DNA from: a virus
Taxonomy: Monodnaviria; Loebvirae; Hofneiviricota; Faserviricetes; Tubulavirales; Inoviridae
IMG/VR virus record: IMGVR_UViG_2721755645_000001
Direction: 5' to 3' (one strand)
DNA length: 17,017 bases
The notes under the pieces were generated by a model. It saw nothing but the letters and a program-made list of their open reading frames with translations, did no database searches and was not told where the DNA came from. Positions within the stretch are counted from its first letter, which is position 1; every line of letters begins with the position of its first letter. Of the stretch, positions 1 to 16,329 are shown one piece after another. Made by a program: the position numbers and the translations under genes.

Positions 1-2
1 TT

Positions 3-34
3 GGTGCGCATAATGTCAACGCGTTATGTTGAAA
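3..34. other. dif-like XerC/XerD recombination site (att) at the left prophage boundary
   Basis: GGTGCGCATAA (3..13) is identical to the XerC-binding arm of E. coli dif; a 10-bp central region TGTCAACGCG follows, then TTATGTTGAAA, which resembles the XerD arm TTATGTTAAAT with 2 mismatches. Confidence 0.6.
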
Positions 35-68
35 AGGCCGCTGCGAAAATCGAATCCCGCAGCGGCCT
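35..68 (-). terminator. Rho-independent terminator candidate downstream of the 309-aa cargo gene
   Basis: GC-rich inverted repeat GGCCGCTGCG (36..45) / CGCAGCGGCC (58..67) with a 12-nt loop; on the minus strand it is followed by TTTTC; the gene's stop is at 101. Confidence 0.5.
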
Positions 69-100
69 CTTTAGCATAACGTCATTGTGCGAACCAATAG

Positions 101-1030
101 CTACTTTTTCGTATAACTCTCTTCGCATTTAGCCAAAAACAGCAGATTAGTAGCGGTTAAATGAAGGGTATAACTCGCTAAATACTCAGGAACTTTTGTT
201 ATTTCTGCCCCTTGTCCATGTCCACCTTCTTTATTTCGAATGGTTGGAATACCACTCTCAAGTAGAATTCTTATTGAAGAAAATTGATTCTGGAGGTATT
301 CAGGTACTAAATTATTTGCCAAACAACTGTTAATTAGTTTTTTAGCTGTGTCAGTATCATTAAATTGCCAAGAATGTTTTTTATGTATGGCTTTCATTAG
401 ACTTTCAAAAGATTTGAGGCAATCATTTAAACATTCTTTATATCGCTGATGTCTATAATGCTCATGGGCGGATAAAAACTCATCGTTTGCTCCGTTATAA
501 CTCTTGTTCTTACCAAGAATCTGAAGCGTAGGCTTTACAACATCAGAATGAATGAATTGTGAGTCAACTTTAACCAACTCTCCTGACTCAAATTGATATC
601 CAAGACCTGCTTCTTTAAACCTGATATTAAGTTCTTCAATAGCATCATCAGGACTTTGCTTTACTAACCCTCTGAATTTCCACTCATTTGATCTTATATA
701 CCCGTCTATCAGTTTGAAACATATCTCAATGATATCCAAGCATTTTTCATGATCTCTCTCAGCTAGGAAATAGTCAAAAATTGCCCCGAAATTCGATTCA
801 GGATACTGTTTGAGAGAGAATACACCATATTCCTTACACAGCGTTTTATGAACGAGTCTGTAAAGCTTACTTGCTTCCGTTTCATAGTCACTATCTTCAC
901 CGATAGTATCTCTTACAATATGAACAACCTGAACACGAAATGCATTTGGTATATTCGTGTATTGGTAAACATCAGCTACTTCACCTCTTAATTTTTTTTG
1001 TCTTTTTGAAAATAATTCGAATATAGCCAA
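101..1030 (-). CDS. Hypothetical 309-aa cargo protein; possible HEPN-type C-terminal domain (R265-x5-H271); function unknown
   Basis: Long ORF with GAGGA Shine-Dalgarno 7 nt upstream of the ATG; very AT-rich (about 30-32% GC in hand-sampled stretches) compared with neighbours; C-terminal motif IRNKEGGHG; terminator hairpin downstream. Confidence 0.75.
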   Translation of the reverse strand: MAIFELFSKRQKKLRGEVADVYQYTNIPNAFRVQVVHIVRDTIGEDSDYETEASKLYRLVHKTLCKEYGVFSLKQYPESNFGAIFDYFLAERDHEKCLDIIEICFKLIDGYIRSNEWKFRGLVKQSPDDAIEELNIRFKEAGLGYQFESGELVKVDSQFIHSDVVKPTLQILGKNKSYNGANDEFLSAHEHYRHQRYKECLNDCLKSFESLMKAIHKKHSWQFNDTDTAKKLINSCLANNLVPEYLQNQFSSIRILLESGIPTIRNKEGGHGQGAEITKVPEYLASYTLHLTATNLLFLAKCEESYTKK

Positions 1031-1116
1031 TTTATAATCCTCAAAGATATGCCATTAATATGTCTGAGTTGATGAAAATCACACCGCTTTTACAGTCGTT
1101 TTCCACGGTGGAGTTA

Positions 1117-1536
1117 TCAGTAATATGAGTTTCTTCTGTGCCACCAATAAAGAAGTCCGTATCCAATGATAAGAATTCCGAAAAACATCAACGACATTCC
1201 CCAGCCAGTTCCGTACCACGAAACCATATCATCGAAAACCAACCCACCCATTTCACGTACTCCGGCAGCTTCCTTAAGAATTGGTTTGAATACCGGAATC
1301 AGAAGGGCGATCGCCAGTGGAGCACCCCAGCGAACAAGACCTGTTTCCATTTTGATCCCGAAAAAGATCCCCGCTCCGACAGCAAGCAACCAGACTACCA
1401 GGCCAGGCGCAGTTTCCAGTGCTGTTTGCCATTCAACATCGAAAGTTTTCATTAGCCAGGCAACAACTGCCAGACAGAAAGCAAATACGCCGACGACAAC
1501 CAGTTCAACGCCGCTTGTTTCGTTATTTCTACTCAT
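1117..1536 (-). CDS. Small integral membrane protein, about 4 predicted TM helices, unknown function
   Basis: 139 aa with four hydrophobic stretches (LVVVGVFAFCLAVVAWLM, LVVWLLAVGAGIFFGI, PLAIALLIPVF, LMFFGILIIGYGLLYWW); about 52% GC in sampled stretches; AAGGA upstream of the ATG. Confidence 0.65.
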   Translation of the reverse strand: MSRNNETSGVELVVVGVFAFCLAVVAWLMKTFDVEWQTALETAPGLVVWLLAVGAGIFFGIKMETGLVRWGAPLAIALLIPVFKPILKEAAGVREMGGLVFDDMVSWYGTGWGMSLMFFGILIIGYGLLYWWHRRNSYY

Positions 1537-1578
1537 CCTTTTGATCCTTTTTCACTGTTCAAAATTCGCACAATAAAG

Positions 1579-1607
1579 AACGTGCAGTGTTGGTAATACT
1601 GCACGTT
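1579..1607 (-). terminator. Perfect 10-bp inverted repeat (AACGTGCAGT-N9-ACTGCACGTT); candidate terminator or attenuator after the repressor gene, or an operator
   Basis: Hairpin lies 29 nt downstream of the repressor stop (1636) on the minus strand and is followed on that strand by a T-rich tract (CTTTATTGTG). Confidence 0.4.
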
Positions 1608-1635
1608 TGTCTCATTCCTGAGACTGTTAATCCTT

Positions 1636-2082
1636 TTACTCTTCTCCAGACACCGCTTTTTTCATAAACATTTTAGTACTGTAAGTGTATGAACTTAAGG
1701 CAGAAACTTGCCTTGCGAGTGCCAGAATATCTTGTTTTTCCAGTGTCCTGATGTTCCACACGATGAAATTATGTGCGTTAGTGGTTTCTTCATCAGTATA
1801 TCCATCCGCAGAAGTGATTAGCTTCCGCTCGGTAGCTTCTTCTTTAACATCAAGAGCATAGCCATAAGCTAAGGTGTTTAAGTCTGCACCCGTAATTTTA
1901 GCTATCTGAATGATGTCACTGAATTTAGGTTCAGTTTTGCCGGACGCTATCCTGACCAGCGTACTCACGCTAATGCCAGTCTTCTCGGCCAGTTCTTCAT
2001 AAGTCGAGTGTTCCAGAATTACCTTTTTGATACGTTCTGCTCTCTGTTTGTCCGCCATAACTTCATGCTCATTGTTGCCCAT
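1636..2082 (-). CDS. XRE-family helix-turn-helix transcriptional regulator (phage repressor-like, analogous in position to RstR)
   Basis: 148 aa; N-terminal HTH-like segment YEELAEKTGISVSTLVRIASGKTEPKFSDIIQIAKITGADLNTL; divergently transcribed from the replication gene; GGAG 8 nt upstream of the ATG. Confidence 0.7.
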   Translation of the reverse strand: MGNNEHEVMADKQRAERIKKVILEHSTYEELAEKTGISVSTLVRIASGKTEPKFSDIIQIAKITGADLNTLAYGYALDVKEEATERKLITSADGYTDEETTNAHNFIVWNIRTLEKQDILALARQVSALSSYTYSTKMFMKKAVSGEE

Positions 2083-2253
2083 CTACTTGGCTCCATCTTA
2101 ACAGTGGTTTTTCAATAGTTAGATTTGATGCTCATTTCTGACAATTTAAACATTGCAAATGTATTGACTGTCAGATCTGAGCATATTACATTGTGACCAT
2201 TCAATCTGCTCACAAATGACTATTGACACATATTTTGATGGGTGTGACTACTT
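2083..2253. promoter_or_regulatory. Divergent promoter/operator region between the repressor and replication genes
   Basis: Rightward sigma70-like candidate: -35 TTGACT (2164..2169), 17-bp spacer, -10 TACATT (2187..2192). Overlapping palindromes TGACTGTCA (2165..2173) and TCAGATCTGA (2171..2180) and further TGAC repeats are candidate repressor sites. Confidence 0.45.
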
Positions 2254-3306
2254 ATGATCGACTGGTTTACCGGAATCCTGCCTTGCACACACCGACCGTT
2301 ACCGGCTGGTAGTGTCGTCAGCGTCGATGCTGACGGTGCAGTGGAGTGGGAAACAGTAAAACGGTTGACCGTTCGCGGTTCGCATGAGTCCACAATGAAA
2401 GTAAGGTCTGTTGGATCTGATGGTGAAGGTCGGGCAACACATCTCTACATTGACGGTAATCCATCAAAGTTTTTGCAAGGTCACTCTGTTATCGGTTCCG
2501 ACGATTTGCAAGGGTTGGTGTTAACAGCTTACGCCAGAATATTGGCATTACTGCATATTCCTCATGATCTACCATCCTATCGGCAGGTCATGAAAGGGCA
2601 ATTTAAGATCTCGCGCATCGATATCAATTACATGTATTCATTGTCAACATTAGAAAATGTCCGCGCATGGTTATATGCCGCAGAATTTAAAGCTAAAACT
2701 CGCCACGGTCGCGCCTGTAGTAAAGGTGGCACTGTTTACTTAGGGAAAAACTCCCGTCGTTGGAGCCTGAAATTTTATTCAAAATATGATGAGCATACAT
2801 CTGGCAAAAAAGGGCACCAGATGGCAGACGAATTCGTTAAAGCTGGTTTACTGGACTGGTCAAAAGATAAATTACGCATTGAATTAACATTAAGAACAAC
2901 TGAATTAATTGATTTGAATCTTACGCTTGGTAATAGCTGGAATATTGAGACGCCCAATAAATTATTCTCTGACTATGTAGGGAGAATAGAAATGAATCAA
3001 AATACTATATTAACTGATGAAAAAATAATTAATCTCCCAAGAAAAATACAGTCTACATATTTATTGTGGAAGCAGGGCGCGAACATGAAAGAGATGTTAC
3101 CGAAACCTACATTCTACCGACACCGTAAAGAATTACTTTCTTTCGGAATAGATATTAACTTTTATTGTGAGTCACCGGATTCTAATAACGTTGTTCCGTT
3201 GGTTCGTACTCTTGAAGCCAAACCAGCCAAAATTCCATCATGGGTTTATGAGAAAGGTTTAATTTTCGATTATAACCGTATTTCACATGCCAGTAACTGG
3301 CATTAA
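2254..3306 (+). CDS. Putative rolling-circle replication initiation protein (gene II / RstA-like)
   Basis: 350-aa ORF, first gene of the plus-strand module and divergent from the repressor, as in Ff and CTX-type phages; assignment by synteny and size only, no catalytic motif verified. Confidence 0.55.
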   Translation: MIDWFTGILPCTHRPLPAGSVVSVDADGAVEWETVKRLTVRGSHESTMKVRSVGSDGEGRATHLYIDGNPSKFLQGHSVIGSDDLQGLVLTAYARILALLHIPHDLPSYRQVMKGQFKISRIDINYMYSLSTLENVRAWLYAAEFKAKTRHGRACSKGGTVYLGKNSRRWSLKFYSKYDEHTSGKKGHQMADEFVKAGLLDWSKDKLRIELTLRTTELIDLNLTLGNSWNIETPNKLFSDYVGRIEMNQNTILTDEKIINLPRKIQSTYLLWKQGANMKEMLPKPTFYRHRKELLSFGIDINFYCESPDSNNVVPLVRTLEAKPAKIPSWVYEKGLIFDYNRISHASNWH

Positions 3307-3317
3307 AGGAGAGTGAT

Positions 3318-3635
3318 ATGTCTAATTATGGTCTTTTTGTAAAAGGTAAAATGCTTGGTGCTCGCCAGCGTAATAAGGTCAATGGTCAGGGATACTATAA
3401 TGAAATTGGTGTTGGCTTAGAGATTCCTGATGGTTTTGGCGGCACTAAGCAAGACCAGATTATTATTCGTGTATCTCAGGCTCTTGTTAATGCCGGTGTA
3501 ATGAATCAGGCAAATAATTTTATCGGTAAGTTAGTCCAGATACCTGTATATGTTCGCGTCTGGTCAATGGAGGGGAGGGAAGGAGTAACTTATAACATTT
3601 CATCAGATGGCGGCATTACTGAAATAAAAGGCTGA
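3318..3635 (+). CDS. Putative ssDNA-binding protein (gene V / RstB-like)
   Basis: 105-aa ORF directly after the replication gene; strong AAGGAGAG Shine-Dalgarno; position matches gV in Ff synteny. Confidence 0.45.
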   Translation: MSNYGLFVKGKMLGARQRNKVNGQGYYNEIGVGLEIPDGFGGTKQDQIIIRVSQALVNAGVMNQANNFIGKLVQIPVYVRVWSMEGREGVTYNISSDGGITEIKG

Positions 3636-3637
3636 TT

Positions 3638-3889
3638 ATGGATACATCAGGTTTCGATATTCAGTTTGATAATCATATTCCTGAAAATGGTTACCGTATT
3701 GAAGGTTATTTATGTAATGCGAACAATGCAAAAGAATGTCAGGCAATAATGGTACGTTCTGAACCATTTCATCAAATTGATTATTCTGCAATGGGAAATT
3801 ACTGGACATTAGGTTTTGGCTCTGTCCTGCTGCTCTGGCTTTTTTCTGTAGGTGTGGGACAGGTAATAAAGATGGTTCGTACTGCTTGA
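3638..3889 (+). CDS. Small protein with a C-terminal hydrophobic segment; possible minor coat or morphogenesis protein
   Basis: 83 aa, start 2 nt after the upstream stop; C-terminal segment WTLGFGSVLLLWLFSVGVGQVI; position corresponds to gVII/gIX in Ff order. Confidence 0.4.
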   Translation: MDTSGFDIQFDNHIPENGYRIEGYLCNANNAKECQAIMVRSEPFHQIDYSAMGNYWTLGFGSVLLLWLFSVGVGQVIKMVRTA

Positions 3890-3923
3890 ATGCGAACCTT
3901 TAAAATGTAATGGAGATAGAGTT

Positions 3924-4157
3924 ATGTTTAAAAAAATCGTTAGTTTTCTGGCTGTACCTGCATTAATGGCTGTTTCTGGCGCGACTTTCGCTGCAGAAGG
4001 AGCGGCATCAAGTGGTGTTGATTTATCGCCGCTGACGAACAGCATTGATTTCAGTACAGTTCTGGTTGCGATTATGGCCGTTGCTGCTTCACTGGTAACA
4101 CTTTATGCCGGTGTCGCTGGCGTTCGCTGGGTATTGCGTACCGTTAAATCCGCATAA
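3924..4157 (+). CDS. Major coat protein (gene VIII-like)
   Basis: 77 aa; signal peptide MFKKIVSFLAVPALMAVSGATFA with AXA-type cleavage, acidic mature N-terminus, hydrophobic core and basic C-terminus (RWVLRTVKSA); GGAGA Shine-Dalgarno; strong terminator follows. Confidence 0.75.
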   Translation: MFKKIVSFLAVPALMAVSGATFAAEGAASSGVDLSPLTNSIDFSTVLVAIMAVAASLVTLYAGVAGVRWVLRTVKSA

Positions 4158-4170
4158 ATTCATTATTCAT

Positions 4171-4195
4171 GGGCGATGCAATATCGCCCGTTTTA
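4171..4195 (+). terminator. Rho-independent terminator after the coat gene
   Basis: Stem GGGCGAT (4171..4177) / ATCGCCC (4183..4189) with a 5-nt loop, followed by GTTTTA; matches the position of the gVIII terminator in Ff phages. Confidence 0.7.
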
Positions 4196-4221
4196 CTTGA
4201 GGTTATTATGGAGATTGAATT

Positions 4222-5934
4222 ATGGAAATTGGGTTCCCTTTTATGGGGGATCGTCTCAGCTTATGTCGTTATTCTTGGGCTAAGAGGCTGACGGTTTATT
4301 CCTTTATTTTTTCCTTTCTCTGGGTTTCCTTTCCCCGATATTCATATTCATTTGTACCAGCAATTGCAGCAGTGGCTGCGCGGGCTGTTATTCCTAAAGT
4401 CGTTGGCCGGGTGCTTGTTCGTCGCTTTGCTGCCAATGATGCGATTTATACGGCATCACAGCTTACAGCAACCCGTGTTTTTGTTGGCCGCGCTGCGGCT
4501 AATGCTGCCGAATACTTGCCTGCTGCCTCATCATACAAAATGAGCGGTGTTGCAACGTGGGCGGGTATTGCTGCTGCTGTATCATCTTTTGTTCCGTCTT
4601 CTTTGAGTTCATCTGACGGCTCGGTAATGGTAATGACTAACGGTAAAAAGATTTCCGATAATTTATATGAAGTAACGTACAGTGGTCAAAGTGGTGAAAG
4701 TAAGACGATAACCGTTAATTTTGAACCACAGGAATTAAGTCCGGTAATCCTTCATGTTAGTCGTAATAATGTGGATGCGGGTTCTCCAGTTGTAGGTGTT
4801 GAAACAGGATATTCCACGCCAGATAATGCACTTTATTATTATCAGGATTCGAAAGAGCTAATTTATTACTATGGTGATAATCCAACTGAAATTGCCAGAA
4901 ATTATCTTAATGACTATAACTCGCGTACTTATACTGAAACACTAACGAATTTTGAACGCACTGTGACGAATAAAGTTGTCAACAGTAATGGAGATGTCTC
5001 CTTTACTGAACAGAATTATAAGTTTACTTATCCTTCCTCATTTTATGAAATTCCTGAGATTACACACTTGTATAGCAACCCGGCCGCATCTTCATTTCCC
5101 GCAGGTATTCCCATGTATGAAAATGTAGCAGGGCTTCCCATGTATTACAGCGTTGCTTATTTAACAGCAGGAAAGCAATATCAGTATCACAACACGCCTT
5201 GTAAAACGACTAATCAGTCAAATGGTGGATATTCGACGATTTGCGCCGTTCCTGAAAAAGAGGATTACACCACAAAAGATATTGATGAAAAGAGTGAGCT
5301 TACTATCTGGACCAATACCAAATATAAAGCCATGACGGAAGTACTGGAGGCCGGAAATATTGAGTCCATGATTGATTATCTGGAGTATCTTGATAGTGTT
5401 AGTGTATCGCCAGCACTTCTTGCCGACATGATTAACGAGCTGTGGTCTGAAGCTGCCGTTAATGCCGATTATAACGGCTTACCGTTTAAAGAGGTTTCAC
5501 CGGCTGAAGTAACTTCTGCGATGTCGGAACTTAGGCTATCTCCAACGTTATTAGATATGCTTTCACCTGTATCTGACAGTGCAGGGGCTGACGTCAATAT
5601 TGATATTACCATTAATAACAACTCAGGATCTGACACTGGAAATAATGGCAATATAGATTTGGGAGAAGATCCCGGTGTAAAAGAGCCTGAGCTTGAAGAA
5701 ACGCCAACGGCAAGAGATATTTTAACGCCAATTATTAACTTGTTGCCTTTTACAAACGAATTTAACATCGGCTCTCGTTCAGCATCCTGCCCCGTTGTTG
5801 AATTCAGCGTGTTTAATCACCAGTACAGAATTGACTCCCATTGTCCGTTAATTGAGCAGAACAGAAGCGCCGTAGAAACCATATTTCTGATTATATGGGG
5901 ATTTGTTGCGCTCCGTATTATTCTTAGTGCCTAA
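4222..5934 (+). CDS. Minor coat / adsorption protein (gene III-like)
   Basis: 570 aa; signal-like hydrophobic N-terminal segment, Gly/Ser/Asn-rich linker (NNNSGSDTGNNGN) and C-terminal membrane anchor (IFLIIWGFVALRIILSA); the true start may be the internal ATG at 4243. Confidence 0.65.
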   Translation: MEIGFPFMGDRLSLCRYSWAKRLTVYSFIFSFLWVSFPRYSYSFVPAIAAVAARAVIPKVVGRVLVRRFAANDAIYTASQLTATRVFVGRAAANAAEYLPAASSYKMSGVATWAGIAAAVSSFVPSSLSSSDGSVMVMTNGKKISDNLYEVTYSGQSGESKTITVNFEPQELSPVILHVSRNNVDAGSPVVGVETGYSTPDNALYYYQDSKELIYYYGDNPTEIARNYLNDYNSRTYTETLTNFERTVTNKVVNSNGDVSFTEQNYKFTYPSSFYEIPEITHLYSNPAASSFPAGIPMYENVAGLPMYYSVAYLTAGKQYQYHNTPCKTTNQSNGGYSTICAVPEKEDYTTKDIDEKSELTIWTNTKYKAMTEVLEAGNIESMIDYLEYLDSVSVSPALLADMINELWSEAAVNADYNGLPFKEVSPAEVTSAMSELRLSPTLLDMLSPVSDSAGADVNIDITINNNSGSDTGNNGNIDLGEDPGVKEPELEETPTARDILTPIINLLPFTNEFNIGSRSASCPVVEFSVFNHQYRIDSHCPLIEQNRSAVETIFLIIWGFVALRIILSA

Positions 5935-5946
5935 AGGAGTGCAACT

Positions 5947-6147
5947 ATGTTTGGGATTCTGATTAGTGCATTAAATACTTTGTTAGGTTTTGTATTCCGG
6001 TCATTGATTATTAAATTCGTCGTATTCTTTGCGCTGTATTTTGTAGTCCAGGGCTTCGTTGATATACGGGGAAAAAATAATGAAAAAGATTTTACTCGCA
6101 TTAACGCTACTATTTTCTTCATGTGCTTTCGCAGGGTCAGAGCTTGA
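5947..6147 (+). pseudogene. Truncated gene VI-like ORF; 3' end removed by the 1183-bp deletion in copy 1
   Basis: First 38 codons identical to the 95-aa ORF at 13681..13968, then the frame diverges after the deletion junction (6062|6063) and runs into the gIV region. Confidence 0.7.
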
Positions 6148-7324
6148 ATTAAATAAAGTCAAGCTACCGGAGGCTATTTCTCTTATTTACAGTGAGGTGC
6201 TTAAAGTCCCGTATATGCTAGATCCACAGCTTGTTAATGATGAACGAATGATTACATTCAGGTTAACATCTGATATTGATGAACGGGAATTTGTAACCCG
6301 TTATCTTGGCAATATGAACATTCGAATATGGACGAAAAAGGGTGTTGATTTTATCGCGCCCTATACGCCGAAAGAGCCGGTTAAGCCACGTTATACATGG
6401 ACTTATACGCCTCAGTACCGTTCTGTTGCCTACCTGTCTGATATTCTTGGCGGCTACGTTTCAGGCTCCTTCAATAACAGTGGAGCCGTGATTTCTGACG
6501 ATTCGCTAAAAGGTTCATCAGGGGCAAGCAACTACATCAATCGAACCGGTGATATTCTGGTTTATTATGGTACGAAAGAGGATATCGCCATCCTGAAAAC
6601 ACTGGTCACTTCGCTGGATACGATGAGTGATGAAGTGGTTGTTTCTGGTTATGTTTTTGAGGTTCAGACCTCGCAGTCTGACGGCTCCGGCATTCTTTTA
6701 GCGGCTAAAATTCTGTCTGATAAATTCAATATTTCAGTTGGTGCTGCCGGACTGGATAATTTTATCAATATTCGAACCGGCTCCATTGATGCCATTTTCA
6801 ATCTGCTGAAAACCGACAGTCGTTTTACTGTTGTCAGTGCGCCACGACTGCGGGTAAAAAATAATGCCTCAGCGTCTTTTTCAGTCGGCTCTGATGTGCC
6901 AGTACTGGGCAGTGTTACGGTGAATAACAATACGACAACGCAATCCGTTGAATATCGTTCCAGCGGTGTTTTGTTTAACGTGACGCCATCAATCAAAAGT
7001 CGGACAATGGATCTCAAGATTCAGCAGCAGCTTTCCAACTTTGTGACCACTGAAACCGGCGTCAATAACTCGCCAACCCTTATCAAGCGTGATGTAACAA
7101 CCGAAGTCAGCCTTGCAGATGGTGATATTATTTTACTTGGTGGCCTTGCTGAACAGAAAGACAGTAAGGCCAGTTCCGGCTGGAGCTTCTTCGGTTCCCG
7201 TACCAGTGAAAGCAACAAGACTGATATTATGGTGATGCTTCAGGTCAGAAAGGTTGACCGGAGCAGGGCGACGCCCCGCAGCGCCGCGAGGAGCGGTGAA
7301 CTGTTCCGGGACAACCTGAACTGA
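6080..7324 (+). CDS. Secretin (gene IV-like outer-membrane export channel), copy 1
   Basis: 414 aa from the ATG at 6080; signal peptide MKKILLALTLLFSSCAFA; C-terminal secretin-like motif DGDIILLGGL. The ORF-track start at 6059 is an in-frame ATG created by the deletion junction. Confidence 0.8.
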   Translation: MKKILLALTLLFSSCAFAGSELELNKVKLPEAISLIYSEVLKVPYMLDPQLVNDERMITFRLTSDIDEREFVTRYLGNMNIRIWTKKGVDFIAPYTPKEPVKPRYTWTYTPQYRSVAYLSDILGGYVSGSFNNSGAVISDDSLKGSSGASNYINRTGDILVYYGTKEDIAILKTLVTSLDTMSDEVVVSGYVFEVQTSQSDGSGILLAAKILSDKFNISVGAAGLDNFINIRTGSIDAIFNLLKTDSRFTVVSAPRLRVKNNASASFSVGSDVPVLGSVTVNNNTTTQSVEYRSSGVLFNVTPSIKSRTMDLKIQQQLSNFVTTETGVNNSPTLIKRDVTTEVSLADGDIILLGGLAEQKDSKASSGWSFFGSRTSESNKTDIMVMLQVRKVDRSRATPRSAARSGELFRDNLN

Positions 7325-7736
7325 TTGTATGGATTTTTATTATGGCGTTAACTTTTATGGGGTATGAACAGTACGACATCTTTTTGTTGCTGTCCGGGGT
7401 TGGCCAAGCCGTACAGTTTCCATTTTCAGCGTTATGGCTGATTCGGCGCGGCAGCATTCATCGGGCCTTATCATGGAAAAATTCATGACACATCAGGAGC
7501 ATGGTGATTGGTGATGGCACTGAAGAAGTGGTGTTTGATTCTCGTGTATCAGGTACAGATTTACCAACTAACTGGATGAACAGGCCTGATTGGTGAGGTC
7601 AGGCCGTTCACTTACTGCTGACAGACATTTGATTCTGATTCGTTTGGAGAAACGGATGATTTTGAATCACTGTCGATAGTAGCCAGTTGACGGCCAGTGT
7701 CAACGATTCCCGCCAGATTCTGCCATCCTTACCATT

Positions 7737-7768
7737 GGTGCGCATAATGTCAACGCGTTATGTTGAAA
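7737..7768. other. dif-like XerC/XerD site at the junction between the tandem prophage copies
   Basis: Same 32-bp sequence as 3..34, lying exactly at the copy 1 / copy 2 boundary. Confidence 0.6.
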
Positions 7769-7802
7769 AGGCCGCTGCGAAAATCGAATCCCGCAGCGGC
7801 CT
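7769..7802 (-). terminator. Rho-independent terminator candidate (copy 2 equivalent)
   Basis: Same hairpin as 35..68. Confidence 0.5.
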
Positions 7803-7834
7803 CTTTAGCATAACGTCATTGTGCGAACCAATAG

Positions 7835-8764
7835 CTACTTTTTCGTATAACTCTCTTCGCATTTAGCCAAAAACAGCAGATTAGTAGCGGTTAAATGAAG
7901 GGTATAACTCGCTAAATACTCAGGAACTTTTGTTATTTCTGCCCCTTGTCCATGTCCACCTTCTTTATTTCGAATGGTTGGAATACCACTCTCAAGTAGA
8001 ATTCTTATTGAAGAAAATTGATTCTGGAGGTATTCAGGTACTAAATTATTTGCCAAACAACTGTTAATTAGTTTTTTAGCTGTGTCAGTATCATTAAATT
8101 GCCAAGAATGTTTTTTATGTATGGCTTTCATTAGACTTTCAAAAGATTTGAGGCAATCATTTAAACATTCTTTATATCGCTGATGTCTATAATGCTCATG
8201 GGCGGATAAAAACTCATCGTTTGCTCCGTTATAACTCTTGTTCTTACCAAGAATCTGAAGCGTAGGCTTTACAACATCAGAATGAATGAATTGTGAGTCA
8301 ACTTTAACCAACTCTCCTGACTCAAATTGATATCCAAGACCTGCTTCTTTAAACCTGATATTAAGTTCTTCAATAGCATCATCAGGACTTTGCTTTACTA
8401 ACCCTCTGAATTTCCACTCATTTGATCTTATATACCCGTCTATCAGTTTGAAACATATCTCAATGATATCCAAGCATTTTTCATGATCTCTCTCAGCTAG
8501 GAAATAGTCAAAAATTGCCCCGAAATTCGATTCAGGATACTGTTTGAGAGAGAATACACCATATTCCTTACACAGCGTTTTATGAACGAGTCTGTAAAGC
8601 TTACTTGCTTCCGTTTCATAGTCACTATCTTCACCGATAGTATCTCTTACAATATGAACAACCTGAACACGAAATGCATTTGGTATATTCGTGTATTGGT
8701 AAACATCAGCTACTTCACCTCTTAATTTTTTTTGTCTTTTTGAAAATAATTCGAATATAGCCAA
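7835..8764 (-). CDS. Hypothetical 309-aa cargo protein (copy 2), possible HEPN-type C-terminus
   Basis: Identical translation to 101..1030. Confidence 0.75.
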   Translation of the reverse strand: MAIFELFSKRQKKLRGEVADVYQYTNIPNAFRVQVVHIVRDTIGEDSDYETEASKLYRLVHKTLCKEYGVFSLKQYPESNFGAIFDYFLAERDHEKCLDIIEICFKLIDGYIRSNEWKFRGLVKQSPDDAIEELNIRFKEAGLGYQFESGELVKVDSQFIHSDVVKPTLQILGKNKSYNGANDEFLSAHEHYRHQRYKECLNDCLKSFESLMKAIHKKHSWQFNDTDTAKKLINSCLANNLVPEYLQNQFSSIRILLESGIPTIRNKEGGHGQGAEITKVPEYLASYTLHLTATNLLFLAKCEESYTKK

Positions 8765-8850
8765 TTTATAATCCTCAAAGATATGCCATTAATATGTCTG
8801 AGTTGATGAAAATCACACCGCTTTTACAGTCGTTTTCCACGGTGGAGTTA

Positions 8851-9270
8851 TCAGTAATATGAGTTTCTTCTGTGCCACCAATAAAGAAGTCCGTATCCAA
8901 TGATAAGAATTCCGAAAAACATCAACGACATTCCCCAGCCAGTTCCGTACCACGAAACCATATCATCGAAAACCAACCCACCCATTTCACGTACTCCGGC
9001 AGCTTCCTTAAGAATTGGTTTGAATACCGGAATCAGAAGGGCGATCGCCAGTGGAGCACCCCAGCGAACAAGACCTGTTTCCATTTTGATCCCGAAAAAG
9101 ATCCCCGCTCCGACAGCAAGCAACCAGACTACCAGGCCAGGCGCAGTTTCCAGTGCTGTTTGCCATTCAACATCGAAAGTTTTCATTAGCCAGGCAACAA
9201 CTGCCAGACAGAAAGCAAATACGCCGACGACAACCAGTTCAACGCCGCTTGTTTCGTTATTTCTACTCAT
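8851..9270 (-). CDS. Small integral membrane protein (copy 2)
   Basis: Identical translation to 1117..1536. Confidence 0.65.
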   Translation of the reverse strand: MSRNNETSGVELVVVGVFAFCLAVVAWLMKTFDVEWQTALETAPGLVVWLLAVGAGIFFGIKMETGLVRWGAPLAIALLIPVFKPILKEAAGVREMGGLVFDDMVSWYGTGWGMSLMFFGILIIGYGLLYWWHRRNSYY

Positions 9271-9312
9271 CCTTTTGATCCTTTTTCACTGTTCAAAATT
9301 CGCACAATAAAG

Positions 9313-9341
9313 AACGTGCAGTGTTGGTAATACTGCACGTT
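9313..9341 (-). terminator. Inverted repeat, candidate terminator or operator (copy 2)
   Basis: Same sequence as 1579..1607. Confidence 0.4.
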
Positions 9342-9369
9342 TGTCTCATTCCTGAGACTGTTAATCCTT

Positions 9370-9816
9370 TTACTCTTCTCCAGACACCGCTTTTTTCATA
9401 AACATTTTAGTACTGTAAGTGTATGAACTTAAGGCAGAAACTTGCCTTGCGAGTGCCAGAATATCTTGTTTTTCCAGTGTCCTGATGTTCCACACGATGA
9501 AATTATGTGCGTTAGTGGTTTCTTCATCAGTATATCCATCCGCAGAAGTGATTAGCTTCCGCTCGGTAGCTTCTTCTTTAACATCAAGAGCATAGCCATA
9601 AGCTAAGGTGTTTAAGTCTGCACCCGTAATTTTAGCTATCTGAATGATGTCACTGAATTTAGGTTCAGTTTTGCCGGACGCTATCCTGACCAGCGTACTC
9701 ACGCTAATGCCAGTCTTCTCGGCCAGTTCTTCATAAGTCGAGTGTTCCAGAATTACCTTTTTGATACGTTCTGCTCTCTGTTTGTCCGCCATAACTTCAT
9801 GCTCATTGTTGCCCAT
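9370..9816 (-). CDS. XRE-family HTH transcriptional regulator (copy 2)
   Basis: Identical translation to 1636..2082. Confidence 0.7.
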   Translation of the reverse strand: MGNNEHEVMADKQRAERIKKVILEHSTYEELAEKTGISVSTLVRIASGKTEPKFSDIIQIAKITGADLNTLAYGYALDVKEEATERKLITSADGYTDEETTNAHNFIVWNIRTLEKQDILALARQVSALSSYTYSTKMFMKKAVSGEE

Positions 9817-9987
9817 CTACTTGGCTCCATCTTAACAGTGGTTTTTCAATAGTTAGATTTGATGCTCATTTCTGACAATTTAAACATTGCAAATGTATTG
9901 ACTGTCAGATCTGAGCATATTACATTGTGACCATTCAATCTGCTCACAAATGACTATTGACACATATTTTGATGGGTGTGACTACTT
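9817..9987. promoter_or_regulatory. Divergent promoter/operator region (copy 2)
   Basis: Same sequence as 2083..2253. Confidence 0.45.
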
Positions 9988-11040
9988 ATGATCGACTGGT
10001 TTACCGGAATCCTGCCTTGCACACACCGACCGTTACCGGCTGGTAGTGTCGTCAGCGTCGATGCTGACGGTGCAGTGGAGTGGGAAACAGTAAAACGGTT
10101 GACCGTTCGCGGTTCGCATGAGTCCACAATGAAAGTAAGGTCTGTTGGATCTGATGGTGAAGGTCGGGCAACACATCTCTACATTGACGGTAATCCATCA
10201 AAGTTTTTGCAAGGTCACTCTGTTATCGGTTCCGACGATTTGCAAGGGTTGGTGTTAACAGCTTACGCCAGAATATTGGCATTACTGCATATTCCTCATG
10301 ATCTACCATCCTATCGGCAGGTCATGAAAGGGCAATTTAAGATCTCGCGCATCGATATCAATTACATGTATTCATTGTCAACATTAGAAAATGTCCGCGC
10401 ATGGTTATATGCCGCAGAATTTAAAGCTAAAACTCGCCACGGTCGCGCCTGTAGTAAAGGTGGCACTGTTTACTTAGGGAAAAACTCCCGTCGTTGGAGC
10501 CTGAAATTTTATTCAAAATATGATGAGCATACATCTGGCAAAAAAGGGCACCAGATGGCAGACGAATTCGTTAAAGCTGGTTTACTGGACTGGTCAAAAG
10601 ATAAATTACGCATTGAATTAACATTAAGAACAACTGAATTAATTGATTTGAATCTTACGCTTGGTAATAGCTGGAATATTGAGACGCCCAATAAATTATT
10701 CTCTGACTATGTAGGGAGAATAGAAATGAATCAAAATACTATATTAACTGATGAAAAAATAATTAATCTCCCAAGAAAAATACAGTCTACATATTTATTG
10801 TGGAAGCAGGGCGCGAACATGAAAGAGATGTTACCGAAACCTACATTCTACCGACACCGTAAAGAATTACTTTCTTTCGGAATAGATATTAACTTTTATT
10901 GTGAGTCACCGGATTCTAATAACGTTGTTCCGTTGGTTCGTACTCTTGAAGCCAAACCAGCCAAAATTCCATCATGGGTTTATGAGAAAGGTTTAATTTT
11001 CGATTATAACCGTATTTCACATGCCAGTAACTGGCATTAA
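9988..11040 (+). CDS. Putative replication initiation protein (copy 2)
   Basis: Identical translation to 2254..3306. Confidence 0.55.
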   Translation: MIDWFTGILPCTHRPLPAGSVVSVDADGAVEWETVKRLTVRGSHESTMKVRSVGSDGEGRATHLYIDGNPSKFLQGHSVIGSDDLQGLVLTAYARILALLHIPHDLPSYRQVMKGQFKISRIDINYMYSLSTLENVRAWLYAAEFKAKTRHGRACSKGGTVYLGKNSRRWSLKFYSKYDEHTSGKKGHQMADEFVKAGLLDWSKDKLRIELTLRTTELIDLNLTLGNSWNIETPNKLFSDYVGRIEMNQNTILTDEKIINLPRKIQSTYLLWKQGANMKEMLPKPTFYRHRKELLSFGIDINFYCESPDSNNVVPLVRTLEAKPAKIPSWVYEKGLIFDYNRISHASNWH

Positions 11041-11051
11041 AGGAGAGTGAT

Positions 11052-11369
11052 ATGTCTAATTATGGTCTTTTTGTAAAAGGTAAAATGCTTGGTGCTCGCC
11101 AGCGTAATAAGGTCAATGGTCAGGGATACTATAATGAAATTGGTGTTGGCTTAGAGATTCCTGATGGTTTTGGCGGCACTAAGCAAGACCAGATTATTAT
11201 TCGTGTATCTCAGGCTCTTGTTAATGCCGGTGTAATGAATCAGGCAAATAATTTTATCGGTAAGTTAGTCCAGATACCTGTATATGTTCGCGTCTGGTCA
11301 ATGGAGGGGAGGGAAGGAGTAACTTATAACATTTCATCAGATGGCGGCATTACTGAAATAAAAGGCTGA
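11052..11369 (+). CDS. Putative ssDNA-binding protein (copy 2)
   Basis: Identical translation to 3318..3635. Confidence 0.45.
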   Translation: MSNYGLFVKGKMLGARQRNKVNGQGYYNEIGVGLEIPDGFGGTKQDQIIIRVSQALVNAGVMNQANNFIGKLVQIPVYVRVWSMEGREGVTYNISSDGGITEIKG

Positions 11370-11371
11370 TT

Positions 11372-11623
11372 ATGGATACATCAGGTTTCGATATTCAGTT
11401 TGATAATCATATTCCTGAAAATGGTTACCGTATTGAAGGTTATTTATGTAATGCGAACAATGCAAAAGAATGTCAGGCAATAATGGTACGTTCTGAACCA
11501 TTTCATCAAATTGATTATTCTGCAATGGGAAATTACTGGACATTAGGTTTTGGCTCTGTCCTGCTGCTCTGGCTTTTTTCTGTAGGTGTGGGACAGGTAA
11601 TAAAGATGGTTCGTACTGCTTGA
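11372..11623 (+). CDS. Small hydrophobic protein, possible minor coat protein (copy 2)
   Basis: Identical translation to 3638..3889. Confidence 0.4.
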   Translation: MDTSGFDIQFDNHIPENGYRIEGYLCNANNAKECQAIMVRSEPFHQIDYSAMGNYWTLGFGSVLLLWLFSVGVGQVIKMVRTA

Positions 11624-11657
11624 ATGCGAACCTTTAAAATGTAATGGAGATAGAGTT

Positions 11658-11891
11658 ATGTTTAAAAAAATCGTTAGTTTTCTGGCTGTACCTGCATTAA
11701 TGGCTGTTTCTGGCGCGACTTTCGCTGCAGAAGGAGCGGCATCAAGTGGTGTTGATTTATCGCCGCTGACGAACAGCATTGATTTCAGTACAGTTCTGGT
11801 TGCGATTATGGCCGTTGCTGCTTCACTGGTAACACTTTATGCCGGTGTCGCTGGCGTTCGCTGGGTATTGCGTACCGTTAAATCCGCATAA
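11658..11891 (+). CDS. Major coat protein (copy 2)
   Basis: Identical translation to 3924..4157. Confidence 0.75.
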   Translation: MFKKIVSFLAVPALMAVSGATFAAEGAASSGVDLSPLTNSIDFSTVLVAIMAVAASLVTLYAGVAGVRWVLRTVKSA

Positions 11892-11904
11892 ATTCATTAT
11901 TCAT

Positions 11905-11929
11905 GGGCGATGCAATATCGCCCGTTTTA
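11905..11929 (+). terminator. Rho-independent terminator after the coat gene (copy 2)
   Basis: Same sequence as 4171..4195. Confidence 0.7.
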
Positions 11930-11955
11930 CTTGAGGTTATTATGGAGATTGAATT

Positions 11956-13668
11956 ATGGAAATTGGGTTCCCTTTTATGGGGGATCGTCTCAGCTTATGT
12001 CGTTATTCTTGGGCTAAGAGGCTGACGGTTTATTCCTTTATTTTTTCCTTTCTCTGGGTTTCCTTTCCCCGATATTCATATTCATTTGTACCAGCAATTG
12101 CAGCAGTGGCTGCGCGGGCTGTTATTCCTAAAGTCGTTGGCCGGGTGCTTGTTCGTCGCTTTGCTGCCAATGATGCGATTTATACGGCATCACAGCTTAC
12201 AGCAACCCGTGTTTTTGTTGGCCGCGCTGCGGCTAATGCTGCCGAATACTTGCCTGCTGCCTCATCATACAAAATGAGCGGTGTTGCAACGTGGGCGGGT
12301 ATTGCTGCTGCTGTATCATCTTTTGTTCCGTCTTCTTTGAGTTCATCTGACGGCTCGGTAATGGTAATGACTAACGGTAAAAAGATTTCCGATAATTTAT
12401 ATGAAGTAACGTACAGTGGTCAAAGTGGTGAAAGTAAGACGATAACCGTTAATTTTGAACCACAGGAATTAAGTCCGGTAATCCTTCATGTTAGTCGTAA
12501 TAATGTGGATGCGGGTTCTCCAGTTGTAGGTGTTGAAACAGGATATTCCACGCCAGATAATGCACTTTATTATTATCAGGATTCGAAAGAGCTAATTTAT
12601 TACTATGGTGATAATCCAACTGAAATTGCCAGAAATTATCTTAATGACTATAACTCGCGTACTTATACTGAAACACTAACGAATTTTGAACGCACTGTGA
12701 CGAATAAAGTTGTCAACAGTAATGGAGATGTCTCCTTTACTGAACAGAATTATAAGTTTACTTATCCTTCCTCATTTTATGAAATTCCTGAGATTACACA
12801 CTTGTATAGCAACCCGGCCGCATCTTCATTTCCCGCAGGTATTCCCATGTATGAAAATGTAGCAGGGCTTCCCATGTATTACAGCGTTGCTTATTTAACA
12901 GCAGGAAAGCAATATCAGTATCACAACACGCCTTGTAAAACGACTAATCAGTCAAATGGTGGATATTCGACGATTTGCGCCGTTCCTGAAAAAGAGGATT
13001 ACACCACAAAAGATATTGATGAAAAGAGTGAGCTTACTATCTGGACCAATACCAAATATAAAGCCATGACGGAAGTACTGGAGGCCGGAAATATTGAGTC
13101 CATGATTGATTATCTGGAGTATCTTGATAGTGTTAGTGTATCGCCAGCACTTCTTGCCGACATGATTAACGAGCTGTGGTCTGAAGCTGCCGTTAATGCC
13201 GATTATAACGGCTTACCGTTTAAAGAGGTTTCACCGGCTGAAGTAACTTCTGCGATGTCGGAACTTAGGCTATCTCCAACGTTATTAGATATGCTTTCAC
13301 CTGTATCTGACAGTGCAGGGGCTGACGTCAATATTGATATTACCATTAATAACAACTCAGGATCTGACACTGGAAATAATGGCAATATAGATTTGGGAGA
13401 AGATCCCGGTGTAAAAGAGCCTGAGCTTGAAGAAACGCCAACGGCAAGAGATATTTTAACGCCAATTATTAACTTGTTGCCTTTTACAAACGAATTTAAC
13501 ATCGGCTCTCGTTCAGCATCCTGCCCCGTTGTTGAATTCAGCGTGTTTAATCACCAGTACAGAATTGACTCCCATTGTCCGTTAATTGAGCAGAACAGAA
13601 GCGCCGTAGAAACCATATTTCTGATTATATGGGGATTTGTTGCGCTCCGTATTATTCTTAGTGCCTAA
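11956..13668 (+). CDS. Minor coat / adsorption protein (copy 2)
   Basis: Identical translation to 4222..5934. Confidence 0.65.
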   Translation: MEIGFPFMGDRLSLCRYSWAKRLTVYSFIFSFLWVSFPRYSYSFVPAIAAVAARAVIPKVVGRVLVRRFAANDAIYTASQLTATRVFVGRAAANAAEYLPAASSYKMSGVATWAGIAAAVSSFVPSSLSSSDGSVMVMTNGKKISDNLYEVTYSGQSGESKTITVNFEPQELSPVILHVSRNNVDAGSPVVGVETGYSTPDNALYYYQDSKELIYYYGDNPTEIARNYLNDYNSRTYTETLTNFERTVTNKVVNSNGDVSFTEQNYKFTYPSSFYEIPEITHLYSNPAASSFPAGIPMYENVAGLPMYYSVAYLTAGKQYQYHNTPCKTTNQSNGGYSTICAVPEKEDYTTKDIDEKSELTIWTNTKYKAMTEVLEAGNIESMIDYLEYLDSVSVSPALLADMINELWSEAAVNADYNGLPFKEVSPAEVTSAMSELRLSPTLLDMLSPVSDSAGADVNIDITINNNSGSDTGNNGNIDLGEDPGVKEPELEETPTARDILTPIINLLPFTNEFNIGSRSASCPVVEFSVFNHQYRIDSHCPLIEQNRSAVETIFLIIWGFVALRIILSA

Positions 13669-13680
13669 AGGAGTGCAACT

Positions 13681-13968
13681 ATGTTTGGGATTCTGATTAG
13701 TGCATTAAATACTTTGTTAGGTTTTGTATTCCGGTCATTGATTATTAAATTCGTCGTATTCTTTGCGCTGTATTTTGTAGTCCAGGGCTTCGTTGAAATC
13801 CTTGTTGAGTTACTGCCAGATTCAAGCAATCTCTCATCGCTGTTTGCCAATTTATCAGACGGATTCTGGTACTTCATTAACCTGAGTAAATTACCACAGG
13901 GGATTAGTATGATTATCTCCGCAATGGCTACTCGTTTTATTATTCGACGTATTCCTGTTATAGGGTGA
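13681..13968 (+). CDS. Minor coat protein (gene VI-like)
   Basis: 95-aa hydrophobic protein with AAGGAG Shine-Dalgarno, lying between the gIII-like and gI-like genes as in Ff phages. Confidence 0.6.
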   Translation: MFGILISALNTLLGFVFRSLIIKFVVFFALYFVVQGFVEILVELLPDSSNLSSLFANLSDGFWYFINLSKLPQGISMIISAMATRFIIRRIPVIG

Positions 13969-13971
13969 GTT

Positions 13972-14997
13972 ATGGCTATTTCTGCATATATTGGCATACC
14001 CGGCTCAGGAAAAAGTTATGAAGCCGTTTGCAATGTCATTATTCCGGCATTTACCAGCGGCCGGAGAGTTGTGACGAACATTTATGGTTTACAAAAAGAT
14101 AAAATCACCGAACGTTATCCTGATGCAACGGGAGAAATTATTGTTGTGGATAATGATGATGTGCTTAAAGCAGATTTCTTTCCTTTTAAAGGTGGGGAAG
14201 GGAGCTTTTGCCAGTTTGGTGATTTAATTGTTATTGATGAAGCATGGCGAATCTTCGGTAGCGATAAGGATATGACGGCTGAGAAGAAATCATTTATTGC
14301 TGAACATCGTCATTTTACGCACCCTGAAACGGGTATTAGCTGTGATTTGGTTATTGTAAATCAGTCACTTTCTAATATTGCTCGCTTTCTGAAAGACAAA
14401 ATAGAAACAACTTACCGGATGCGCAAGCTGAAAGCGTTGGGCCTGAATAATCATTACTGCATTGACGTATATTCAGGCCACAAAATCTATAAAAGCAACC
14501 TCGTCACCAGTTATCGCAATAAATATAACCCTGATATTTTTGAACTTTACAAAAGTTATGAAGGAAATAACGGTAATGAAAAGCAGACAGATAAACGCCA
14601 GAGCATCTGGAATTCTGGCAAAGTCAGGTTCTTTCTTGTGCTTTTTCCATTGATGTTTATCGGGTCAGGCTGGCTGATTTACTCATTTTTCAGCACGTTT
14701 GGCCGAAGCGATCCCTCGCCAGATTTGACTACAACAGATGTACGTGATGCGGCCATGTTTCGTTCTTCCGCTGCTACTCCAGCACCAGATACTCCCTCAG
14801 AACCAGCTGAACCGCCACTTTCAACCGAGTGGCGTATATCAGGGAGAATGACCAGTGAAGGCAGGGCGTTTGTGATTCTTGTTAATGGTGCCGGTGTTTT
14901 GCGTGCCGTTCCTGCATCCAGTTTTAATTACAAAGGGATGTTGATGAGCGGAATTATTGATGGTGAGCGTGTGACGCTTTATACGGGGAAAAAATAA
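13972..14997 (+). CDS. Assembly ATPase (gene I / Zot-like)
   Basis: 341 aa; Walker A GIPGSGKSY at the N-terminus, Walker B-like LIVIDEAW, C-terminal TM segment (FFLVLFPLMFIGSGWLIYSFF); stop overlaps the gIV start (TAATG). Present only in copy 2. Confidence 0.8.
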   Translation: MAISAYIGIPGSGKSYEAVCNVIIPAFTSGRRVVTNIYGLQKDKITERYPDATGEIIVVDNDDVLKADFFPFKGGEGSFCQFGDLIVIDEAWRIFGSDKDMTAEKKSFIAEHRHFTHPETGISCDLVIVNQSLSNIARFLKDKIETTYRMRKLKALGLNNHYCIDVYSGHKIYKSNLVTSYRNKYNPDIFELYKSYEGNNGNEKQTDKRQSIWNSGKVRFFLVLFPLMFIGSGWLIYSFFSTFGRSDPSPDLTTTDVRDAAMFRSSAATPAPDTPSEPAEPPLSTEWRISGRMTSEGRAFVILVNGAGVLRAVPASSFNYKGMLMSGIIDGERVTLYTGKK

Positions 14998-16241
14998 TGA
15001 AAAAGATTTTACTCGCATTAACGCTACTATTTTCTTCATGTGCTTTCGCAGGGTCAGAGCTTGAATTAAATAAAGTCAAGCTACCGGAGGCTATTTCTCT
15101 TATTTACAGTGAGGTGCTTAAAGTCCCGTATATGCTAGATCCACAGCTTGTTAATGATGAACGAATGATTACATTCAGGTTAACATCTGATATTGATGAA
15201 CGGGAATTTGTAACCCGTTATCTTGGCAATATGAACATTCGAATATGGACGAAAAAGGGTGTTGATTTTATCGCGCCCTATACGCCGAAAGAGCCGGTTA
15301 AGCCACGTTATACATGGACTTATACGCCTCAGTACCGTTCTGTTGCCTACCTGTCTGATATTCTTGGCGGCTACGTTTCAGGCTCCTTCAATAACAGTGG
15401 AGCCGTGATTTCTGACGATTCGCTAAAAGGTTCATCAGGGGCAAGCAACTACATCAATCGAACCGGTGATATTCTGGTTTATTATGGTACGAAAGAGGAT
15501 ATCGCCATCCTGAAAACACTGGTCACTTCGCTGGATACGATGAGTGATGAAGTGGTTGTTTCTGGTTATGTTTTTGAGGTTCAGACCTCGCAGTCTGACG
15601 GCTCCGGCATTCTTTTAGCGGCTAAAATTCTGTCTGATAAATTCAATATTTCAGTTGGTGCTGCCGGACTGGATAATTTTATCAATATTCGAACCGGCTC
15701 CATTGATGCCATTTTCAATCTGCTGAAAACCGACAGTCGTTTTACTGTTGTCAGTGCGCCACGACTGCGGGTAAAAAATAATGCCTCAGCGTCTTTTTCA
15801 GTCGGCTCTGATGTGCCAGTACTGGGCAGTGTTACGGTGAATAACAATACGACAACGCAATCCGTTGAATATCGTTCCAGCGGTGTTTTGTTTAACGTGA
15901 CGCCATCAATCAAAAGTCGGACAATGGATCTCAAGATTCAGCAGCAGCTTTCCAACTTTGTGACCACTGAAACCGGCGTCAATAACTCGCCAACCCTTAT
16001 CAAGCGTGATGTAACAACCGAAGTCAGCCTTGCAGATGGTGATATTATTTTACTTGGTGGCCTTGCTGAACAGAAAGACAGTAAGGCCAGTTCCGGCTGG
16101 AGCTTCTTCGGTTCCCGTACCAGTGAAAGCAACAAGACTGATATTATGGTGATGCTTCAGGTCAGAAAGGTTGACCGGAGCAGGGCGACGCCCCGCAGCG
16201 CCGCGAGGAGCGGTGAACTGTTCCGGGACAACCTGAACTGA
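14997..16241 (+). CDS. Secretin (gene IV-like), copy 2
   Basis: Same 414-aa protein; GGGGA Shine-Dalgarno; start overlaps the gene I stop. Confidence 0.85.
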   Translation: MKKILLALTLLFSSCAFAGSELELNKVKLPEAISLIYSEVLKVPYMLDPQLVNDERMITFRLTSDIDEREFVTRYLGNMNIRIWTKKGVDFIAPYTPKEPVKPRYTWTYTPQYRSVAYLSDILGGYVSGSFNNSGAVISDDSLKGSSGASNYINRTGDILVYYGTKEDIAILKTLVTSLDTMSDEVVVSGYVFEVQTSQSDGSGILLAAKILSDKFNISVGAAGLDNFINIRTGSIDAIFNLLKTDSRFTVVSAPRLRVKNNASASFSVGSDVPVLGSVTVNNNTTTQSVEYRSSGVLFNVTPSIKSRTMDLKIQQQLSNFVTTETGVNNSPTLIKRDVTTEVSLADGDIILLGGLAEQKDSKASSGWSFFGSRTSESNKTDIMVMLQVRKVDRSRATPRSAARSGELFRDNLN

Positions 16242-16329
16242 TTGTATGGATTTTTATTATGGCGTTAACTTTTATGGGGTATGAACAGTACGACATCTTC
16301 TAGGTATTCAGTTACTTAGAGGATTTATT

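Follow-up and report, generated by a model that had tools for sequence, protein, structure and literature searches.

The dif-like sequence that occurs twice on the plus strand of the 17,017-nt stretch of DNA analysed here (the window), at positions 3–34 and 7737–7768, very probably represents one half, attP1, of the CTXΦ-type attachment site in a filamentous phage of the CUS-1/YpfΦ family, which would integrate as folded (+) single-stranded DNA (ssDNA). By analogy with CTXΦ, the functional site would be a hairpin in this strand, and the double-stranded form, with its 10-bp spacer, would be masked and non-recombining. A sequence-only reading had regarded the 32 bp as the att site, with a 10-bp core. 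Its dif-like site is confirmed but accounts only for the attP1 half; the inverted attP2 at 69–95 and the stem-loop had both been missed.

The junction region is identical (100%) to the chromosome of the mouse-gut strain E. coli NGF1 (NZ_CP016007.1), and the window runs along the reverse strand across the origin of that record, with base 1 lying 76 nt downstream of hipA. It holds a CUS-1/YpfΦ-type filamentous prophage in two unequal tandem copies at dif, next to hipA (Table 1). The copies are 100% identical apart from three indels, among them two deletions in copy 1: one of 1183 bp (6062/6063 versus 13797–14979), which removes the C-terminal part of DUF2523 and nearly all of zot, and one of 372 bp (7382/7383 versus 16300–16671), which removes an 82-aa ORF, both with at most 1 nt of homology at their junctions. 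An assembly artefact, i.e., a circular contig read twice, was rejected on account of these three indels and of the placement of the array between hipA and dif in a finished chromosome. The site had been attributed to a phage-derived, Xer-exploiting element, which agrees with a prophage carrying the pII/G5P/coat/Zot/secretin gene set without an integrase: the ORFs scanned yielded neither an integrase nor any other recombinase domain, and integrase-based integration was rejected for this reason. A megablast search with the full prophage copy gave no match in the INPHARED phage collection; relatives came from E. coli chromosomes. If phage DNA is produced by rolling-circle synthesis as in CTXΦ, the only exportable genome would run from the origin of copy 1 into copy 2, a 7,734-nt zot-less form that would depend on copy 2 in trans. 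The protein encoded by the cargo gene also matches the PADLOC defence candidate PDC-S32 (E = 4.5e-10). This gene adjoins attP2, its place being taken by other genes in NU14 (CUS-1-type) and YpfΦ, and the boundary of the swap falls right at the end of attP2 (~base 97).

Past the end of the window, the NGF1 chromosome continues as ...ccttaccaTT GGTGCGCATAA TGTATA TTATGTTAAAT tgactg..., and the canonical dif (GGTGCGCATAATGTATATTATGTTAAAT) begins 3 nt after base 17017, which is where the sequence-only reading, in suggesting that the flank be inspected, had expected it; inside the 17,017-nt window there is no canonical, 6-bp-spaced dif. The empty site reconstructed from the left flank, dif and the right flank (112 nt) is found unchanged (100% identity) in other E. 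coli chromosomes and is covered to at least 80% in 832 genomes, and because it is intact in other strains, the array represents a precise insertion at dif. To the left of positions 3–34 lies chromosomal DNA of the hipA side (..ggtttatgTT). The sequence TTGGTGCGCATAATGT is common to all three junctions (attL, inter-copy and attR), which differ only 3' of it; this places the crossover inside this block, where the XerC cleavage position also lies. As a result of the insertion, dif is regenerated on the right side, and a hybrid of attP1 type is left on the left.

The 32-nt string GGTGCGCATAATGTCAACGCGTTATGTTGAAA is present at both positions with 0 mismatches (0 expected in 200 shuffles), in keeping with the earlier description of an exact XerC arm, a 10-bp central region and a XerD-like arm with 2 mismatches, and of its repetition at the inter-copy junction. 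The XerC arm agrees with that of NGF1's own dif at 11/11 positions, and the two sites are the only exact matches to this arm in the window, where matches with up to 2 mismatches number 7 versus 4 expected. The XerD-like arm TTATGTTGAAA matches that of dif at 9/11 positions (2 mismatches) and is displaced by the longer spacer. Taken alone, 11-mers within 2 mismatches of the XerD arm are not above chance (15 in the window versus 12.6 expected); the one at 24–34 is meaningful because it lies beside an exact XerC arm, is conserved in 43 other loci and has a pairing partner at 69–79. The cores of attP1 and dif have TGT in common and then differ (CAACGCG versus ATA), and the bottom strand has CGTCA where dif has TATACA. 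Parsing attP1 with a 6-bp core would make CGCGTTATGTT the XerD arm, which agrees by eye at 2/11 positions, and was rejected. About 30 nt upstream of attP1 there is an inverted repeat, GTTGAC ggccagt GTCAAC, at 7686–7706 (and 16969–16989); TGTCAACG is present both in this repeat and in the attP1 spacer.

The plus-strand attP1 and the minus-strand attP2 are inverted with respect to each other and separated by 34 nt, and their duplex cores, of 10 bp (TGTCAACGCG) and 5 bp (TGACG) versus 6 bp (TGTATA) in the host dif, are both incompatible with dif. When folded as ssDNA, the plus strand of positions 1–112 is predicted to form one long hairpin (−32.4 kcal/mol, z = −7.24; 0/200 shuffles as good) in which the XerC arm at 3–13 pairs with 85–95 and the XerD-like arm at 24–34 with 69–79, and in which, within the core, T14 and G15 pair with A84 and C83, and G21/C22/G23 with T82/G81/C80. 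The predicted hairpin re-forms inside a 301-nt context across the inter-copy junction, where the second copy is flanked by phage DNA on both sides and thus reads as the attP of the circular phage genome. The fold of the complementary (minus) strand is weaker but also good (−29.9 kcal/mol), so that the difference in energy alone does not pick the strand. Situated 3' of the cargo gene on the minus strand, the apical stem-loop could, as a guess, be its terminator, a role for which it may mainly exist; with its 12-nt loop, it was not called by a simple consensus terminator scan.

Table 1. Prophage copies, genes, attachment-site elements and related insertion-sequence examples (positions refer to the window unless a sequence is named).
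Feature	Position	Strand	Details
Prophage copy 1, hipA side, defective	1–7734	+	Without 1183 bp and 372 bp of copy 2; 7-bp duplication TGGTGAT at 7502–7515
Prophage copy 2, dif side, complete	7735–17017	+	Ten genes, listed separately below
Cargo gene	7835–8764 (copy 1: 101–1030)	-	AbiJ_NTD4 + DUF7014, STM4504/CBY_0614 family
Hypothetical gene	8851–9270	-	
HTH repressor-like gene	9370–9816	-	
pII replication protein	9988–11040	+	Phage_CRI + G2P_X_C
G5P ssDNA-binding protein	11052–11369	+	
Coat-like gene	11658–11891	+	Weak Coat_B match
570-aa protein, pIII position	11956–13668	+	
DUF2523 gene	13681–13968	+	
Zot	13972–14997	+	
Secretin	14997–16241	+	
attP1-type site / attL (left prophage/chromosome junction)	3–34	+	XerC arm 3–13 GGTGCGCATAA; 10-nt spacer 14–23 TGTCAACGCG; XerD-like arm 24–34 TTATGTTGAAA
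Apical G+C stem-loop between attP1 and attP2, hairpin tip	35–68	+	GGCCGCTGCG, 12-nt loop, CGCAGCGGCC; conserved in 29 aligned relatives
attP2-type inverted second site	69–95	-	Minus-strand reading: XerC-like arm GGTTCGCACAA (95–85); 5-nt spacer TGACG (84–80); XerD-like arm TTATGCTAAAG (79–69)
Whole hairpin region, attP(+) equivalent	1–97	+	Predicted pairs 1–5/93–97, 7–15/83–91, 21–29/74–82; TCAAC (16–20) bulged
Second hairpin copy, inter-copy junction	7735–7831	+	attP1 7737–7768, attP2 7803–7829; phage DNA on both sides
IS-borne half-hairpin examples	L004 (plasmid pEC244_2) 3950–6790; L003 (AR_0372 chromosome) 7946–10745; L007 247–991		

Sites of the same design were surveyed with the pattern GGTGCGCATAATGT + 4–12 nt + TTATGTT, i.e., an exact XerC arm followed by TGT in a spacer of more than normal length, which yielded 43 loci elsewhere: 31 IMG/VR contigs and 12 genome loci, the latter including genomes labelled Yersinia (among them Y. 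pestis), Erwinia, Enterobacter, Lelliottia, Kluyvera, Rosenbergiella and Phytobacter. The spacer measured 9, 10 or 11 nt in all 43, and the stem-loop and inverted partner followed downstream in 42, the remaining locus (L032) having a rearranged 3' arm. Both arms are conserved, and the spacer varies freely after the invariant TGT, although the very 10-nt spacer of the window was seen again in six surveyed contigs; three loci (L013, L039 and L047) combine the same arm design with an unrelated apical region. Among 29 unique aligned hairpins, 98.3% of pair cells were standard, versus 27–51% when the partner was slid by 1–3 columns. Covariation is thin, with 2 pairs changed on both sides among relatives that are ~90% identical and whose top-strand arms are fixed by the search pattern, and the case therefore rests on architecture, the slide controls and an asymmetry in wobble pairs: G·T occurred in 10 pair columns (61 cells) and A·C in 2 columns (2 cells). 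In addition, the strand that carries attP1 first was predicted to be more stable than its complement in 30/31 hairpins, by a mean of 2.5 kcal/mol, a bias that, as modelled, points to selection on one strand. Together, the G·T/A·C asymmetry and the stability bias support folding of the plus strand. The survey indicates that the design is common to many enterobacterial inoviruses with different cargo genes, and it provides a sequence rule by which this dif-integrating class can be flagged: an exact XerC arm, TGT, a 9–11-nt spacer, a XerD-like arm, a stem-loop and an inverted partner.

Several surveyed sequences showed further peculiarities. In E. coli LD39-1 (L005), two successive elements occupy dif, each with its own hairpin variant (10022–10115 and 19348–19440; spacers TGTACGACACG and TGTCATACGCG); the first of the two is an inovirus that has diverged and is in part degraded, and the arrangement suggests that different integrative mobile elements exploiting Xer (IMEXs) can be stacked serially at one dif. 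Enterobacterial-type attP1 sites also appeared in assemblies that bear the labels of unrelated taxa, namely a Candidatus Nanosynbacter MAG (L043), Actinomadura monticuli (L047) and Pseudomonas sp. UM16 (L039, a 244-nt contig), most likely because of contamination or mis-binning and not because the host range is wider; L043 bears the E. coli chromosomal flank ccttggtttatgtt.

Part of the hairpin has a separate distribution: several hundred E. coli plasmids, as well as chromosomes near dif, contain a ~93% identical counterpart of the stretch 25–98, which comprises the XerD-like arm of attP1, the stem-loop and attP2 but not the XerC arm. This recurrent half-hairpin sits in an element of the ISNCY/IS1202 family, ordered as inverted repeat, half-hairpin, passenger gene (AbiJ-like or SIR2), transposase and inverted repeat. 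On plasmid pEC244_2, the element has TGT...ACA ends with ATGTT on both sides, and one end lies 5 bp from the plasmid Xer site TGTGCGCACAA TCTATC TTATGTTAAAT; in L007, this same end of the IS directly adjoins a prophage attL at the latter's XerC arm. Both the targeting of Xer sites by the IS1202 family and passengers of the ISKpn21 type have already been published.

In CTXΦ, only the folded (+) ssDNA recombines, with XerC exchanging one pair of strands that is stabilised by core bases on the XerC side (PMC4246890, PMC3089051). Replication then completes integration, which is irreversible because the site is masked in the duplex prophage, and new phage DNA arises from tandem prophages by rolling-circle synthesis (PMC3089051, PMC4246890, PMC3442271). 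It is from CTXΦ that we infer folding, XerC dependence and irreversibility for the phage described here. The packaged (+) strand would correspond to the plus strand of the window, i.e., the sense strand of pII through pIV, and its bases 1–97 would fold as the hairpin, so that attP1 anneals to the inverted attP2 and offers XerC and XerD a duplex-like site to bind, in which the core is asymmetric and in part unpaired. If integration proceeds as in CTXΦ, XerC would cut both the attP1 strand and the top strand of dif 3' of GGTGCGCATAA and would swap one strand pair, the exchanged strands being held by the common TGT; XerD would stay inactive because the XerD-side cores differ; and replication would turn the resulting pseudo-Holliday junction into an integrated prophage. 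Once double-stranded, the prophage would have its site masked by the 10-bp and 5-bp cores, such that Xer excision should not occur and integration would be irreversible, and new (+) strands would be made, again following CTXΦ, by rolling-circle synthesis from one tandem copy into the next. The model predicts the order that is observed, with chromosomal flank and an attP1-type site at the left end, that site again between the copies and an intact dif on the right, and this right-hand dif would be available for the next integration. Counting against it is the bottom-strand core, which at 5 nt is shorter than the 6-bp core of dif.

Three other accounts of the site were weighed against integration of folded ssDNA. 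It is unlikely that, in the manner of VGJΦ, the 32-bp site serves directly as attP in the double-stranded replicative form, with XerC and XerD bound 10 bp apart and the inverted partner irrelevant to the process (e.g., as part of a terminator). Integration of this kind would leave the same junction products as that of ssDNA, such that the anatomy of the prophage alone cannot separate the two models, and the XerC arm of the site is indeed perfect, its XerD arm is good, and there is TGT homology on the XerC side. However, an inverted partner accompanies 42 of the 43 extended-spacer sites; a spacer of 9–11 nt and freely varying sequence is hard to fit to a fixed duplex geometry; and the excess of G·T over A·C pairs, like the strand bias in stability, points to single-strand folding. 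Moreover, the attP1 of CTXΦ, with its 12-bp core, has been reported as unsuitable for Xer recombination, and the VGJ-type site is a single one of 29 bp (PMC4246890).

We consider it very unlikely that the array and its hybrid junctions arose by homologous recombination or duplication, leaving a dif-like site without present function. Homologous recombination may alter copy number and put an incoming phage between resident copies (Derbise and Carniel, PMC4266046), and a double-stranded prophage site is expected to be inert under the folded-ssDNA model as well; but the arms are conserved across phages of different cargo and hosts where spacer and flanks diverge, and the insertion lies exactly at dif, with dif regenerated, neither of which a scar without function would lead one to expect. 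An exchange begun by XerD and activated by a phage factor, as for TLCΦ, whose site has a poor XerD arm, is scarcely credible here: nothing specific favours it except the 2 mismatches in the XerD-like arm, and that arm is good (9/11) but displaced, the XerD side of the core is not dif-like, and no DUF3653/XafT-like protein was detected among the ORFs scanned.

Within the folded-ssDNA model itself, we allow an outside chance that the double-stranded "imperfect dif" at attL and at the junction (attP1 with a 10–11-bp core) is not fully inert and acts as a secondary Xer target for incoming folded ssDNA. Were this the case, it would explain the published preference of superinfecting YpfΦ for insertion between resident copies over the regenerated dif, and XerC would be able to exchange strands on a duplex in which the XerD arm is displaced by 4–5 bp.

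The closest known systems are CUS-1Φ and YpfΦ, both of which have been classed as CTX-type (PMC4246890, PMC3089051, PMC3442271, PMC4266046) and have attP regions with features for direct integration of ssDNA (PMC3089051, PMC4246890, PMC3442271); for YpfΦ, an inverted pair of XerC/XerD binding sites, regeneration of the 3' dif and an "imperfect dif" between copies have been described (Derbise and Carniel, PMC4266046). With the cargo end left aside, copy 2 shows 99.2% identity to the CUS-1-type tandem prophage in E. coli NU14, an O18:K1:H7 strain, and 99.6–99.7% identity to YpfΦ as integrated in Y. pestis NCTC5923, and it shares RefSeq protein accessions with prophages of the CUS-1/YpfΦ type. 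The comparison with the attP of related phages that the sequence-only reading had proposed thus finds the same arms, stem-loop and attP2 in NU14 and YpfΦ, together with the same right-end flank (..ccatccttaccaTT) and tandem arrays at dif. The differences lie in the spacer, which is TGTACGACTCG (11 nt) in NU14 and Y. pestis versus TGTCAACGCG (10 nt) here; in the attL-adjacent cargo, where those phages carry ORFs of their own versus the AbiJ_NTD4+DUF7014 gene here; and in the deletions in copy 1 of the NGF1 array.

The resemblance to CTXΦ extends to two inverted dif-like sites, an over-long attP1 core that opens with the bases of the host dif (TGT) and a short attP2 core, a (+) ssDNA hairpin (here predicted), tandem arrays and regeneration of dif on one side (PMC3089051, PMC4246890, PMC3442271), and a minus-strand repressor gene followed by plus-strand replication and morphogenesis genes. 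In CTXΦ, however, attP1 (AGTGCGTATTA TGTGGCGCGGCA TTATGTTGAGG) has a 12-bp core and attP2 one of 7 bp (5–7), and the two inverted sites lie ~90 bp apart (PMC3089051, PMC4246890, PMC3442271) in a hairpin of ~150 nt, versus cores of 10 and 5 nt, a distance of 34 nt and a hairpin of ~97 nt here; its arms are those of a Vibrio dif rather than an enterobacterial one. Like the NGF1 phage, VGJΦ is filamentous, lacks an integrase and has homology with dif on the XerC side of the core, but it uses one double-stranded 29-bp site with a near-normal (~7-bp) core, reversibly, in contrast to the inverted pair here, whose cores measure 10 and 5 bp. TLC-type elements differ in having a degenerate XerD arm, a dif-like core and XafT (DUF3653), whereas here the arm matches at 9/11 positions, the core diverges after TGT and there is no DUF3653 match. 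The plasmid Xer sites cer and psi and the chromosomal dif likewise have 11-bp XerC and XerD arms around a central region; their cores are 6–8 bp long and act as duplex DNA, and a 10-bp duplex core falls outside that range. At the level of sequence, the window has every defining feature of CTX-type attachment sites; the design is already known for CUS-1/YpfΦ, and the 10-bp spacer is the expected signature of the CTXΦ style rather than a new kind of Xer site.
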